A stretch of 64,000 nucleotides of DNA from Pseudomonas phage vB_PaePA10145phi1_MKR2, in sequence record PV565008.1; one strand, 5' to 3'. Below are positions 4,516-50,900 of the stretch, piece by piece. Within the stretch, counting starts at the first letter, position 1, and every line of letters starts with the position of its first letter. The notes beneath the pieces are model-generated. The model saw only the letters and a list, made by a program, of their open reading frames with translations. It made no database searches and was not told where the DNA came from. Both the position numbers and the translations under genes were made by a program.

Positions 4516-4547
4516 TTTTAAACAGTATATCACAAATGTGATATAAT
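4516..4547 (+). promoter_or_regulatory. promoter-like conserved block A (TTTAAACAGTATATyACAAATGTGATATAAT; contains extended -10 TGATATAAT)
   Basis: One of 5 copies of a ~45-nt conserved block, each directly upstream of a gene start. Confidence 0.5.
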
Positions 4548-4572
4548 CAACATATATAGGAGATTCTAATAC

Positions 4573-5049
4573 ATGTCACGCAATACTATTTCTTCCTGGA
4601 GTGAACTTGGTTCAATGCTGGGTGTACAGCCGAAGCCGGTTCAGAAGAAACAGAAAAATCGAGCTAAAAAGAATCATGAAGCTGCGGTTCGTAAAAATTC
4701 TAGGGAAACCTTTATGGACATTGCTGCAAAACAAACTAAATCAAGTCCTAACTTCCGTAAGAACAAACAAAAAGATGTTCGTCATTGCAGTGTATGTGAT
4801 AATATTAAACTAAAAGAAAATGGTATCGAAGAAGGGCGGGCCAAACCAATTGGTATGACCGAATTAGCTAAGTTCAAAGTTGAGCTAGCAAAAAATGGTC
4901 TTGAGCTATTCGGTTGTGAAGTACGTAAGCAAGAATCTTTTGCAGATGCATTTTATGGTAATAATACCATTTGTGAAGAAACTGCAAAGCTGATTAAAGC
5001 ATACCAGGAAGAGTTTGATTCAGTCTTCCGCCGCGCTATTACTGCCTAA
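4573..5049 (+). CDS. hypothetical basic protein
   Basis: 158-aa ORF after promoter block A (4516-4547), SD GGAG; followed by terminator 5057-5096. Confidence 0.6.
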   Translation: MSRNTISSWSELGSMLGVQPKPVQKKQKNRAKKNHEAAVRKNSRETFMDIAAKQTKSSPNFRKNKQKDVRHCSVCDNIKLKENGIEEGRAKPIGMTELAKFKVELAKNGLELFGCEVRKQESFADAFYGNNTICEETAKLIKAYQEEFDSVFRRAITA

Positions 5050-5056
5050 CGATATA

Positions 5057-5096
5057 GGGGACCTTCTGGTCCCCTTAGTCATTATTATTTTTTTTG
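5057..5096 (+). terminator. rho-independent terminator
   Basis: GGGGACC-TTCT-GGTCCCC then T-run. Confidence 0.6.
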
Positions 5097-5106
5097 GATT
5101 TTAGCT

Positions 5107-5298
5107 ATGGATGATATTGAAAAGAAAATAGCCAAAATGGAAGCTCTATTTAGGTACCATGGTATTACCGTTGATATTAACCATAAGTTGAAACCTAATG
5201 CTAAGACAAAATTAACTCGTGCGGAAATTAACCGATTACAAATACAATATGATAAGCTTTTAGCTGAACGCGAAGAAGCTTTAAAAGCAATTCCTTAA
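5107..5298 (+). CDS. hypothetical coiled-coil protein
   Basis: 63-aa ORF. Confidence 0.4.
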   Translation: MDDIEKKIAKMEALFRYHGITVDINHKLKPNAKTKLTRAEINRLQIQYDKLLAEREEALKAIP

Positions 5299-5302
5299 AT
5301 TA

Positions 5303-5533
5303 TTGAGGATTTATAAAATGTTCAAGCGCGTTATGAGATATATTCGTGTTTTGAAATTAATTGTTATTTTCTATGTTAGGCGACAACTGGGTTTACACGA
5401 TTATTGTACACGAAAAAATACAATTGCATTAGATCGTGAAAATAATAAACGTGTTCAAATAAATGCTATTTCTCGTAAAGTCGAAGAAGCATTATTTAAA
5501 GTTGAACTAGCTGCGATAATGAGTAAGCGGTAA
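5303..5533 (+). CDS. hypothetical basic protein
   Basis: 76-aa ORF followed by terminator 5546-5565. Confidence 0.4.
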   Translation: MRIYKMFKRVMRYIRVLKLIVIFYVRRQLGLHDYCTRKNTIALDRENNKRVQINAISRKVEEALFKVELAAIMSKR

Positions 5534-5545
5534 TGTTGTCATAAA

Positions 5546-5565
5546 GCCCTCCCTTCGGGGAGGGC
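5546..5565 (+). terminator. GC-rich tetraloop hairpin (terminator/attenuator; T-tract delayed)
   Basis: GCCCTCCC-TTCG-GGGAGGGC. Confidence 0.5.
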
Positions 5566-5566
5566 T

Positions 5567-5607
5567 ATTGCACTAAATTTTATTTGAGATCTACATTATA
5601 GATTAGC
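5567..5607 (+). promoter_or_regulatory. promoter-like conserved block B (ATTGCACTAAATTTTATTTGAGATCTAcATTAtA)
   Basis: One of 5 copies; consensus TTGARATCTATATTACA preceded by ATTGCAyTAAATTTT. Confidence 0.5.
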
Positions 5608-5643
5608 ATATACTAATGGAAACATCTACATGAGGTAATTATC

Positions 5644-5943
5644 GTGAACGAAGCTATTATTTCACTGGACCGCAGAGGAGCCCATCATTTAGGATCTCGC
5701 GGTTATCCAATTAGATCAATTGGAGATGTTACAGTATTTGATTTGAATCATAATCAACTATATCCCAAAATCCATTCTCTTAAAGATCAAAATCATGATG
5801 GATGGCACTCCATTAGTGTTGATGATGAAAATGGAGTAACAGCATATACGTTTGTTTTGAATATGGATCTTAATCTAGGATGGCTAAGACCTAAGCAGCC
5901 TAATGTTGGTGGTGGATATATCAAAATCAAATTTGAACAATAA
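5644..5943 (+). CDS. hypothetical protein (GTG start)
   Basis: 99-aa ORF after promoter block B, SD GAGGT; terminator 5943-5960. Confidence 0.5.
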   Translation: MNEAIISLDRRGAHHLGSRGYPIRSIGDVTVFDLNHNQLYPKIHSLKDQNHDGWHSISVDDENGVTAYTFVLNMDLNLGWLRPKQPNVGGGYIKIKFEQ

Positions 5944-48747: not shown

Positions 48748-49428
48748 ATGGTAGAAAAGCTCAGTTTTGCTGATATATTTAAGATGGCTAAAGAGGAAAA
48801 TGTTAAGCTTGAATTGCATTGTCTAATTGGTACTCGACCAGTTAGGGGTCTTATTAAAAGTTTAAACTTTAATTCAATCAGACCTGATATATGTGAATCT
48901 GTTAATTTATATGTAAATGTATTTTCTAAAGTAGTAGAGGCTAGAGTAGATCTATCAAGTACTACTGCTGATTATGGTTGCTGGAGAATGACGCCAGAAA
49001 CTAAGAATTATGTAGATAGTAAATATAACTTACCAGAAAAAATTGATATCACTAATCCAGATATCGTTAGGAGTAATATTAATTATTACCTCAGTTTACC
49101 TACTAAGGAACGCACTGAGTTATTTAATAAAATAAATAATCCTAATGTCATTGAGGCAATAAACAAAGAATGGTCTAAAATGGTTGTAGAGTATTATCAA
49201 TTTGAGATCGATTCGTTTATTGGATTAATTGATTTCGATCATGTCCTTATCAGTAAGTTCATGGTATTTAACTGGATGGATGATCTGTTTGAATATGCTT
49301 TAAATATCCCATTAAAACAAACCAATACAGTAAATGAAGGCACCTGTTGCTTACTGGTTCACAAAGATAAAAAGGCAACATATACCCATTTTACTGATAT
49401 TAAAAATCTTATCAAAGTAAGTGTATAA
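48748..49428 (+). CDS. hypothetical protein (last gene of + strand block)
   Basis: 226-aa ORF; bidirectional hairpin 49441-49462 downstream. Confidence 0.6.
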   Translation: MVEKLSFADIFKMAKEENVKLELHCLIGTRPVRGLIKSLNFNSIRPDICESVNLYVNVFSKVVEARVDLSSTTADYGCWRMTPETKNYVDSKYNLPEKIDITNPDIVRSNINYYLSLPTKERTELFNKINNPNVIEAINKEWSKMVVEYYQFEIDSFIGLIDFDHVLISKFMVFNWMDDLFEYALNIPLKQTNTVNEGTCCLLVHKDKKATYTHFTDIKNLIKVSV

Positions 49429-49440
49429 TTACGGCATAAA

Positions 49441-49485
49441 CCCCTCTCCGTATGGAGAGGGGATATGTCTTTATTTTTTTATTTA
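49441..49485. terminator. bidirectional terminator at convergence of + and - strand blocks
   Basis: CCCCTCTCC-GTAT-GGAGAGGGG followed by TTTATTTTTTTATTT on + strand. Confidence 0.65.
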
Positions 49486-49488
49486 AAC

Positions 49489-49878
49489 TCACTTAGAAAA
49501 ATCTTCTACTGGAATATCATCCAGCCAATCATTAAGTAGTTTAAATTGATGAGGGTGTTGCATCTTAGTAACTTTACCATACTTAACACTAACTGCTTTA
49601 CCAGTAGACACGGCAAGATCAACTAGTTTCTTTTCATATGCATTAAACTCATCATACCACCGAGTATGAATAAGTTTTGCTAGGCGATCGTAAGCCGTCT
49701 TTCGATAATGATCTTCTTGTTCGCGACGCTGTTCGTCAAGTAGTTCTTTTTGACGTTGTTCTTGCTGACGCTTTTCTTCTTCCTTTTTCTCTTTCTCTAG
49801 TCGTTTCTTCTCAGCAAAATATGATAGAACCGGTAGTTTGAAAAGTAGGCTTAGAAGTAGTTGAAAGAATTGTTTCAT
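49489..49878 (-). CDS. hypothetical membrane-anchored coiled-coil protein (start trimmed to Met preceded by GAGGAAA)
   Basis: N-terminal hydrophobic FFQLLLSLLFKLPVLSYF followed by highly charged K/E/R/Q-rich segment. Confidence 0.55.
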   Translation of the reverse strand: MKQFFQLLLSLLFKLPVLSYFAEKKRLEKEKKEEEKRQQEQRQKELLDEQRREQEDHYRKTAYDRLAKLIHTRWYDEFNAYEKKLVDLAVSTGKAVSVKYGKVTKMQHPHQFKLLNDWLDDIPVEDFSK

Positions 49879-49958
49879 TAGTATTTCCTCAGTTTGATTA
49901 AATAGATAATTTACAAATGGCAATCCGCCTAGTTACATACTAGATAGCTGTAAGTATT

Positions 49959-50369
49959 TTAATCCGTTACAATGTCTGGATAACGTTCATCAATTAATGA
50001 TTTTCTATATGCAAACTCACGCACCTCTGCTTCTAATTTTTCTTTAGTTGCATCTGTAGCACCGATCACAATAATTGAATCATTATTAATTGATAACTCT
50101 ACGTCATTATCTTTTCCAAATACTAATTTAAAAACAGTATTTAATTCATCTAATTGATCTTGAACGGTTACTGTATCATCATGGATTGCCCTAGACGGTT
50201 CCTCTAATAGACCCTCTAGCACTTTATAAGACTTTATAAAAAGAGTATCATTAAAATCTTCTTTTAACCATGTTAATTCAAGTGTATATAAATCAACCAC
50301 TCTATTAAGATTTGAAGTAGTTATATCTGTTTTCCATTCATAACCTAGATAGTTAGTTTCATTACTCAT
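49959..50369 (-). CDS. hypothetical acidic protein
   Basis: 136-aa ORF. Confidence 0.55.
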   Translation of the reverse strand: MSNETNYLGYEWKTDITTSNLNRVVDLYTLELTWLKEDFNDTLFIKSYKVLEGLLEEPSRAIHDDTVTVQDQLDELNTVFKLVFGKDNDVELSINNDSIIVIGATDATKEKLEAEVREFAYRKSLIDERYPDIVTD

Positions 50370-50411
50370 TATAAACTCCTTTGATTAATACATATTAAAT
50401 AATCTGGAGTA

Positions 50412-50588
50412 TTATTTCTTTGTAATGCGATAACCAACTGACCATAAATCTATACGGACGAAACCTTTTCCCTCATGTTGACCGTATAAACATACACGTA
50501 ACATTCTATTACCTGGCTTCATATCAATTCGTGTTACCTCAAATTTATTAGTAATGTATTCTTGGATGATAAATAATAGATGACTCAT
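50412..50588 (-). CDS. small hypothetical protein (58 aa)
   Basis: Found by hand; SD AGGAAA upstream on - strand. Confidence 0.4.
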   Translation of the reverse strand: MSHLLFIIQEYITNKFEVTRIDMKPGNRMLRVCLYGQHEGKGFVRIDLWSVGYRITKK

Positions 50589-50619
50589 TTTATATTTTCC
50601 TGATTAATGACAAACATAA

Positions 50620-50639
50620 GCCCCTCCATATGGAGGGGC
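50620..50639 (-). terminator. hairpin between tRNA-Thr and small ORF (terminator or processing site)
   Basis: GCCCCTCC-ATAT-GGAGGGGC. Confidence 0.45.
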
Positions 50640-50717
50640 AATATGATTTACTGAGTCTTTCGCGTTCAATCCCATCCTAACTAATATATTTAAGAATAGT
50701 TTAAACCTCAGTAAATT

Positions 50718-50794
50718 TGGTGCCGCCACTCCGAATCGAACGGAGGACCTACGCATTACAAGTGCGTTGCTCTACCTAGCTGAGCTATAGCGGC
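50718..50794 (-). tRNA. tRNA-Thr (anticodon UGU), CCA encoded
   Basis: Cloverleaf folded by hand: acceptor GCCGCUA/UGGCGGC, D stem GCUC/GAGC, anticodon stem ACGCA/UGCGU with loop CUUGUAA, T arm CUCCG-UUCGAUU-CGGAG. Confidence 0.85.
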
Positions 50795-50856
50795 GGAATC
50801 TTCTACATATAGTGTATATGAAAGTATTATTTTAATTTATTATAATAAATAAAGTT

Positions 50857-50900
50857 ATATTCAAACATATTTAAACAGTATATTACTAACTTGATATTAC
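50857..50900 (+). promoter_or_regulatory. promoter-like conserved block A (+ orientation inside - strand block; drives 50943-51080)
   Basis: TTCAAACATATTTAAACAGTATATTACTAACTTGATATTAC. Confidence 0.5.

Follow-up and report, generated by a model that had tools for sequence, protein, structure and literature searches.

Early promoters of a phiKZ-type Pseudomonas jumbo phage occur as two sequence subtypes that recur at orthologous positions in phage 201phi2-1

The 64,000 nucleotides (nt) of Pseudomonas phage vB_PaePA10145phi1_MKR2 analysed here (record PV565008.1; this whole stretch is called the window) are, judged by sequence, DNA of a phiKZ-type jumbo phage. Pieces of 12 kb and 25 kb have matches in 47 and 57 Pseudomonas phage records respectively, identity to phiKZ, PA7, kmuB and other Phikzvirus genomes amounts to 99.1-99.9%, and window positions 1-63559 correspond to phiKZ 216256-280334 in a BLAST comparison with the assembled phiKZ record, the final 441 nt extending beyond the end of that linear record. 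The gene content runs from PHIKZ208 to the ribonucleotide reductase genes (phiKZ genes 208-306), and along it lie ten long AT-rich blocks, most probably early promoters read by the virion RNA polymerase (vRNAP) of the phage, which fall into two sequence families, class A and class B. These predicted early promoters, with their scores on the profile described below, are:

4496-4541, + strand: class A, upstream of the PHIKZ216 homologue; 42.0 bits; phiKZ site 220781; core TATATCACA at 4526-4534; predicted start G 4540; 5' untranslated region 33 nt; no GC hairpin upstream.
5562-5607, + strand: class B, upstream of the PHIKZ218.1 homologue; 35.3 bits; phiKZ site 221848; deviant core TACATTATA at 5592-5600; predicted start 5606.
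12305-12350, + strand: class B, upstream of the PHIKZ230.2-232 homologues; 43.9 bits; phiKZ site 228592; core 12335-12343; predicted start 12349; gene-linked to class B site 252550 of phage 201phi2-1.
20294-20339, + strand: class A, upstream of the PHIKZ241 homologue; 43.6 bits; phiKZ site 236855; core 20324-20332; predicted start 20338.
20726-20771, + strand: class B, upstream of the PHIKZ242-246 homologues; 39.3 bits; phiKZ site 237287; core 20756-20764; predicted start 20770; gene-linked to class B sites 230051 and 233945 of 201phi2-1.
23797-23842, + strand: class A, upstream of the PHIKZ246.1 homologue; 39.2 bits; phiKZ site 240358; core 23827-23835; predicted start 23841.
27461-27506, + strand: class B, upstream of the PHIKZ254 homologue; 36.9 bits; phiKZ site 244022; core 27491-27499; predicted start 27505 (A); gene-linked to class B site 263649 of 201phi2-1.
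30146-30191, + strand: class A, upstream of the PHIKZ260 homologue; 43.0 bits; phiKZ site 246707; core 30176-30184; predicted start 30190; 5' untranslated region 37 nt; gene-linked to class A site 271225 of 201phi2-1.
41502-41547, + strand: class B, upstream of the PHIKZ283.1 homologue; 35.6 bits; phiKZ site 257570; core 41532-41540; predicted start 41546 (A); abuts the stop codon of the gene before it; no hairpin.
50849-50894, + strand: class A, upstream of the homologue of PHIKZ293.2 (45 amino acids, aa); 37.8 bits; phiKZ site 266882; core TATATTACT at 50879-50887; predicted start 50893; six differences from phiKZ; hypervariable among strains.

All ten blocks had been listed by an earlier, sequence-only reading of the window and were found where it had placed them, with the first core base of class A at 4526, 20324, 23827, 30176 and 50879 and that of class B at 5592, 12335, 20756, 27491 and 41532. 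On a 39-nt weight matrix built from the ten blocks and scanned on both strands they score 35-44 bits, compared with a maximum of 14.6 bits in shuffled sequence, and no other site in the 64 kb, on either strand, scores at least 10 bits, which means that every copy had been caught. A repeat search run without prior information recovers the same families (D2 and D3 corresponding to class A, D4 to class B and D5 to a hairpin together with class B). The exact core 9-mer TATATTACA occurs 10 times in the window versus 2.9 ± 1.8 times in shuffles; seven of these are in blocks and three, at 26877 (- strand), 47471 and 48088, are lone 9-mers with no block around them. With one mismatch allowed, the count of 62 stands at chance level (63.7 expected), so the 9-mer alone was rejected as the signal, which resides in the long block. 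The common core proposed for all copies holds for seven; two blocks depart from it by one mismatch and one block by two, the deviant cores being TATATCACA at 4526, TATATTACT at 50879 and TACATTATA at 5592. Of the consensus details proposed for each class, the run of seven T in class A is present in three of the five copies, and the class B consensus fits the copy listed at 41515 in its right half only. The ribosome-binding sites and spacing described earlier hold throughout, with (T)AGG or GAGG placed 6-12 nt ahead of an ATG or GTG start codon that itself lies 41-64 nt from the first core base in all ten blocks. The 4526 copy also contains a perfect inverted repeat with 8-bp arms (TATATCAC-AAAT-GTGATATA, window 4526-4545), which arises from a T-to-C change in the core and has no equivalent in any other copy.

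The early promoters of phiKZ, conserved AT-rich sequences used by the co-injected vRNAP (PMC8244752; PMC10914365; review PMC13282480), have been counted at 28 (Ceyssens 2014, as cited) to 32 by differential RNA sequencing (dRNA-seq) and share a common AT-rich element (PMC8244752), the consensus of which has been printed as TATATTAC (PMC7058600, Table 2). Scanning the 39-nt profile over the phiKZ genome assembled whole gave 30 strong and three weak sites (the latter at 35876, 42827 and 250644), all on the + strand; the profile had no - strand match anywhere in phiKZ or in 201phi2-1, and a leading-strand bias of phiKZ early promoters has been published (PMC8244752). The ten blocks lie at positions of phiKZ early promoters, before + strand early operons, and each carries the AT-rich TATATTAC element with its upstream T-rich and A-rich positions. 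They thereby share with the phiKZ set the genome itself (99% identity), the element, the strand bias and the number (30-33 here, 28-32 published). In published work the element has its centre near -10, and transcription begins 6 nt downstream of it (PMC7598289; PMC5312081). Core positions 14-15 read TG in seven of the ten blocks and AG or TA in the other three; when the G at core position 15 is taken as +1, TATATTAC falls at -14 to -7 and the ten leaders measure 27-50 nt, in agreement with the published phiKZ mode of 31-40 nt (PMC8244752). The copy at 30176, before PHIKZ260, is the very example of a primary start site in the dRNA-seq study, mapped there at 10 min post-infection (PMC8244752, Fig. 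2A legend). For PHIKZ054 the primary start has the published early motif (PMC8244752) and was equated by position with phiKZ site 45568.

The ten blocks are accordingly read here as early promoters of a phiKZ-type jumbo phage, that is, as members of the known phiKZ set, with a probability of roughly 0.93; their use by vRNAP as early start sites is taken from the literature, and the exact start base is predicted from sequence. That a phage-specific factor or RNA polymerase (RNAP) reads them, as had been suggested from the letters, fits well with this coincidence. The multisubunit vRNAP (gp80, gp149, gp178 and gp180, annotated in phiKZ at positions all outside the window) would enter with the DNA and recognise a long AT-rich promoter, requiring neither host RNAP, nor a sigma factor, nor new protein synthesis. 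The common scaffold, counted from the first core T, consists of A at -20, T at -18, AAA at -16 to -14, TTT at -9 to -7 and RA at -6 and -5, followed by TATATTAC, 5 nt and TG, the G of which is the most likely transcription start. The leaders, with their AGG or GAGG ribosome-binding site, would then open into + strand early operons, and the GC hairpins found before seven blocks would end the upstream transcription unit.

Early promoters and terminators of phiKZ are already known as elements, and the phiKZ literature examined treats the early promoters as one motif, making no mention of a division into A and B or of its conservation. When positions -30 to -1 of all 30 strong phiKZ sites are clustered without supervision, 13 class A sites separate from 17 class B sites, exactly along the line drawn in the sequence-only reading, with a silhouette of 0.281 versus 0.123 ± 0.030 after independent permutation of the columns (none of 1000 attains 0.281), and the two sequence families are thus real and genome-wide. 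The sites are:

Class A, phiKZ (13): 2161, 2665, 4166, 4516, 34584, 70339, 106875, 108063, 220781, 236855, 240358, 246707, 266882.
Class B, phiKZ (17): 23585, 29398, 44922, 45568, 51715, 57984, 63063, 120657, 171854, 172370, 199217, 213064, 221848, 228592, 237287, 244022, 257570.

Class A has TTTAAAcaG before the core and class B has TTTrAGATy, the difference residing chiefly in four pre-core bases (ACAG versus GATC) and in positions further upstream; on this sequence evidence A and B are two subtypes of one early promoter architecture and not unrelated elements. The earlier suggestion that they might be two temporal classes, in the sense of early versus middle, is not supported, as the class A start of PHIKZ260 is seen at 10 min and PHIKZ054, equated with class B site 45568, has the early motif; in a comparison with the published middle and late motifs, neither class resembles them. 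A description of the split was not found in the literature searched, including a 2026 review and a full-text string search, with Ceyssens 2014 and Thomas 2008 lying outside that coverage, and the conserved two-subtype structure is probably a modest new refinement.

The same division is found in 201phi2-1, a phage of another genus (Serwervirus), the 316,674-bp genome of which contains 32 sites, all on the + strand, with 15 A and 17 B according to a one-base rule and with A-like TTTAAAsrS and B-like TTTsAGATT before the core. Clustering of its 31 strongest sites gives a silhouette of 0.30 versus 0.113 ± 0.027 (0 of 1000), and clustering and the one-base rule agree at 29 of 31 sites in 201phi2-1 and at 30 of 30 in phiKZ. 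Promoters of the two phages were linked through 127 reciprocal-best-hit + strand open reading frames (ORFs; median amino-acid identity 42%), taking the nearest upstream promoter within 4 kb. All 24 promoter pairs obtained in this way are of the same class (9 A-A and 15 B-B; Fisher p = 7.6e-7), a concordance reached by none of 20,000 label permutations and by none of 31 circular shifts preserving label order, the best of which attained 18. When linking is restricted to promoters no more than 600 nt from the orthologous gene in each phage, six of six pairs agree. Four of the ten window promoters have a partner in 201phi2-1, namely 12335, 20756 and 27491 (B-B) and 30176 (A-A). At 50-95 nt upstream, the flanks of orthologous promoters are 0.258 identical versus 0.261 at random, and cross-phage pairs of the promoters themselves are 0.507 identical when orthologous, 0.477 when taken from the same class at large and 0.410 when of different classes. 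With flanks at the random level and orthologues barely above same-class pairs, it is class membership that is conserved and not residual ancestry; as far as can be read from these genomes, selection maintains this genome-wide split in at least two phage genera.

Early promoters of 201phi2-1 thus share with those of phiKZ the core, the spacing to GTG, the restriction to the + strand and the two subtypes at orthologous positions, and differ in detail in the upstream consensus of class A (TTATTAGAAGCC...). The published 201phi2-1 early consensus, TTAWTAVAA_HYWTTTRARR_BTATATTACDWHDGTG (PMC7058600), merges both subtypes in one degenerate motif, and six early starts have been mapped in this phage by ONT-cappable-seq (PMC11512511). 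The merged motif may have hidden class B sites in that transcriptome work. A class B early-type site is present at 201phi2-1 position 71703, just upstream of gp128 and gp129, the latter encoding the beta subunit of the non-virion RNAP (nvRNAP); gp129 and gp130 have been attributed to a middle promoter (PMC11512511).

Beyond these two genera, a shell-protein locus search by three-sequence alignment yielded three loci only; two metagenomic jumbo-phage contigs with a shell protein 43-44% identical carry class B sites at the positions of gp53, the shell gene and gp57-59. The annotated promoters of phage EL, few in the 150 kb covered, have without exception the A-like form (ATTTTAAACC-TACATTAT), even in front of orthologues of phiKZ class B genes, so the dichotomy is not universal in the family and an extension of the A/B split to EL was rejected. 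A degenerate-pattern scan of IMG/VR returned, among the matches listed, mostly single, chance-like hits along with some 201phi2-1 fragments and a few jumbo-phage contigs. Two IMG/VR contigs, 3300009194_000004 (L125) and 3300031933_000215 (L126), encode a helicase 63% identical to phiKZ gp075; no site of at least 10 bits on the phiKZ profile lies within ± 10 kb of it, and the early promoters of these phages may differ.

A GC-rich terminator had been described before eight of the ten blocks; a hairpin directly precedes seven, and none is present before those listed at 4516, 41515 and 50857. The picture of terminator-promoter cassettes accordingly applies to the seven blocks with the following hairpins and not to the other three:

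5546-5565, + strand: TTCG-loop GC-rich hairpin directly upstream of a class B block (repeat families D1 and D5).
12286-12307, + strand: hairpin AGGAGAGCTATTTAGCTCTCCT directly upstream of a class B block.
20266-20283, + strand: TTCG-loop terminator hairpin, followed by TTTTATATTGTG and a run of seven T, upstream of a class A block.
20709-20730, + strand: TTCG-loop hairpin directly upstream of a class B block; T-poor tail CTATTGCAC.
23768-23787, + strand: TTCG-loop terminator hairpin upstream of a class A block.
27444-27463, + strand: CAAA-loop terminator hairpin upstream of a class B block.
30116-30136, + strand: terminator hairpin with a 5-nt loop upstream of a class A block.

These hairpins fall in a 10-copy repeat family (D1), and the window contains 20 terminator-like sites versus 8.3 ± 3.2 in shuffles, the hairpin at 20709 having been missed by the terminator scan because it has no T-run. 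The known intrinsic terminator motif of phiKZ is BCCYCCCCHWWDGGGRRGGBYTTATKYYGT, with 61 sites (PMC10914365). Its CCCTCCC-loop-GGGAGGG stem recurs in the hairpins before the seven blocks and a TTAT-type tail in four of them; the tails at 5546 and 20709, both before class B copies, differ in being T-poor (CTATTGCAC) and run straight into the promoter, and the fit to the degenerate published motif is approximate, with 4-6 substitutions. All seven hairpins are members of this conserved terminator family. Five more CCTCCC-TTCG-GGGAGG hairpins, at 17015-17047, 22574-22606, 33718-33750, 38209-38241 and 47258-47290, have no promoter block behind them, and together with the three promoters that have no hairpin they indicate that terminators and promoters are independent elements which often abut.

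The copy at 50879 stands apart, 6 of its 46 positions being different in phiKZ. In an alignment of seven strains the flanks are invariant, and the promoter alleles are mosaic and equal to other class A copies, T2P carrying the type of 30176 and the window that of phiKZ 4516, which on sequence grounds looks like short-patch gene conversion. With this locus set aside, 3 of 414 block positions differ from phiKZ, with a background of 1.24%, and for class B alone the count is 0 of 230. That the blocks are hypervariable or subject to gene conversion in general is not supported, 9 differences in 460 positions being no significant excess over the background (p = 0.12). The earlier proposal that the blocks serve as substrates for recombination thus finds some weak support in the mosaic alleles at 50879 and none in the overall variability. 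As to the surroundings (window 50849-51090), this class A promoter is the only one within a block of - strand genes; it precedes a 45-aa + strand ORF and points toward the - strand gene PHIKZ294, making an antisense RNA possible. A region of 181 nt here shows 89-98.9% identity across 43 strains that elsewhere in their genomes agree at about 99%, and some of the strains have a degraded core (TATATCATT, TATATTATT).

That the blocks are instead host sigma-70 promoters, transcribed by Pseudomonas aeruginosa RNAP and perhaps equipped with UP elements or an extended -10, is very improbable. They are AT-rich with a TATA-like hexamer, and the perfect extended -10 TGATATAAT that had been pointed out does exist at 4540-4548, yet it occurs in that single copy, where it begins at the predicted start site, and the blocks lack a conserved -35 element. 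The window holds 95 sigma-70-like matches (-35/-10 with 16-18 nt spacing) versus 94.7 ± 9.2 in shuffles, none of the blocks is among the best 60 of the 95 + strand matches listed, and the development of phiKZ is insensitive to the host RNAP inhibitor rifampicin and does not depend on that polymerase (PMC13282480; PMC10914365); the sigma-70 reading was rejected. Promoters of the virion RNAP of phage N4 are likewise early and likewise read by an injected virion polymerase, but they are DNA hairpins, and a hairpin promoter of this type was rejected too, as the ten 50-nt blocks share no structure (z-scores -1.97 to +1.38). The early promoters of the Bacillus phage AR9, AAATATATATTAT-(6N)-G, resemble the blocks in having a long, highly conserved AT-rich element near -10, a start 6 nt downstream and a homologous virion multisubunit RNAP (PMC5312081); AR9 differs in sequence, in having uracil in place of thymine in its genome and in that no two-subtype structure has been reported. 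Several points weigh against the assignment to the phiKZ early set and its two subtypes: the assignment of the blocks depends on their sequence identity to phiKZ, a published genome that has been studied by experiment; the site-by-site match to published starts covers PHIKZ260 only, with PHIKZ054 matched by position; ONT-cappable-seq recovered only 18 phiKZ early promoters (PMC10914365), so that part of the predicted set may have little or no activity, with the deviant cores 5592 and 4526 as candidates; in vitro binding of vRNAP to these sequences was not reported in the literature examined; and the A/B dichotomy was not found in EL, in 150 kb with few annotated promoters. The families might also be hitch-hiking repeats, left by a recent spread of terminator-promoter cassettes through duplication or gene conversion, with class an accident of origin. 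Some copies indeed agree beyond the promoter: segments 5524-5598 and 20688-20762 match at 85% over 75 nt, hairpin included (family D5), phiKZ sites 70339 and 246707 have more than 50 nt in common, and the strain alleles at 50879 are mosaics of other class A copies. Recent spread cannot explain why class is kept at orthologous positions with proteins about 42% identical and flanks randomised, and the scarcity of differences from phiKZ outside 50879, with none in class B, speaks against it as well; as the sole explanation it is largely refuted by the class concordance with 201phi2-1, and we regard it as improbable.

With the blocks taken as phiKZ early promoters, what the split means can be read in two ways. 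A and B might be functionally distinct subclasses of vRNAP promoter, differing in strength, in the kinetics of onset or shut-off, or in the need for a co-injected or early factor, a proposal that refines the early-promoter explanation without replacing it and that is offered tentatively. It would account for the preservation of class at 24 of 24 orthologous positions between genera in spite of saturated neutral sequence and for the placement of class B, in both phages, before the shell gene gp054, before gp053 and before the nvRNAP genes gp068, gp071-074 and gp121-123, a placement echoed in the two metagenomic contigs, where gp53, the shell gene and gp57-59 have class B. The genes behind class A are mostly short and poorly conserved, and ORFs with a 201phi2-1 orthologue make up 41 of 126 in B units versus 12 of 74 in A units (Fisher p = 0.013), in a test that is rough on account of crude ORF calls and non-independent genes. 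Put in full, and with the same considerable reserve, the A-type (TTTAAAnnS before TATATTAC) may drive variable accessory or host-takeover genes and the B-type (TTTnAGATY before TATATTAC) the conserved core early programme of nuclear shell and second-polymerase subunits, with the split encoding a difference in strength, timing or factor-dependence kept at least since the divergence of Phikzvirus and Serwervirus. Yet the published early motif is present in both classes, both are active at 10 min of infection, and the EL orthologues of class B promoters are A-like. An equally good explanation, which comes somewhat nearer to even odds and still falls short of them, is that the vRNAP accepts either upstream haplotype but not intermediates, so that A and B represent two equivalent fitness peaks with no regulatory difference. 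Class does stay fixed as the remaining promoter sequence drifts to its class consensus, intermediates are in fact rare (the close agreement of clustering and one-base rule in both phages), and other genera seem to be of a single flavour, EL being A-like and the OBP and N1M2 consensus looking B-like (PMC7058600). This reading would leave the link of class B to conserved core early genes as coincidence or shared history.

The rediscovery of phiKZ early promoters and terminators from raw sequence was correct and concerns elements already known; what is added is that the promoters come in two subtypes held fixed at orthologous positions in a second genus, with the surrounding DNA randomised. As an analogy, the class II and class III promoters of phage T7 might be considered, with one phage RNAP, two conserved subtypes, few differing positions and different gene sets; the T7 polymerase is a single-subunit enzyme, its promoter sequence is unrelated, and the functional difference between its classes is established. 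For the question of promoter recognition by the sigma-less virion polymerase of nucleus-forming jumbo phages, a two-state promoter provides concrete in vitro templates, and the two classes permit existing dRNA-seq and time-course data to be re-analysed for a hidden layer in the early programme. The split may also explain why published single logos are degenerate upstream of the core and why few early promoters were recovered in 201phi2-1.

The window differs from phiKZ in several further places. About 770 bp of phiKZ (268882-269653) with the HNH endonuclease gene PHIKZ296 are missing at window position ~52880, the breakpoint adjoining a duplicated tRNA-Asn; the two tRNA-Asn copies (52840 and 54966) are identical over 77 nt and belong to a cluster of seven tRNA genes on the - strand (50718-56665; Thr, Asn, Asn, Asp, Met, Pro, Leu). 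Some 275-290 nt of phiKZ (235887-236175, inside PHIKZ239) are absent at 19629-19645, where the ORF is only 60 aa long, and about 480 nt at 38702-39186, between the gp278 and gp279 homologues, have no phiKZ counterpart and hold an extra ORF of 153 aa (38693-39154). Around 49400-50900 the gene orientation turns from + to -, and the sign of the GC skew changes at the same place. A 43-nt direct repeat (family D7), 81% identical between 7951-7993 and 38497-38539, is located inside coding regions in both places, the PHIKZ221 and the gp277/278 homologue regions, which suggests paralogous protein segments.

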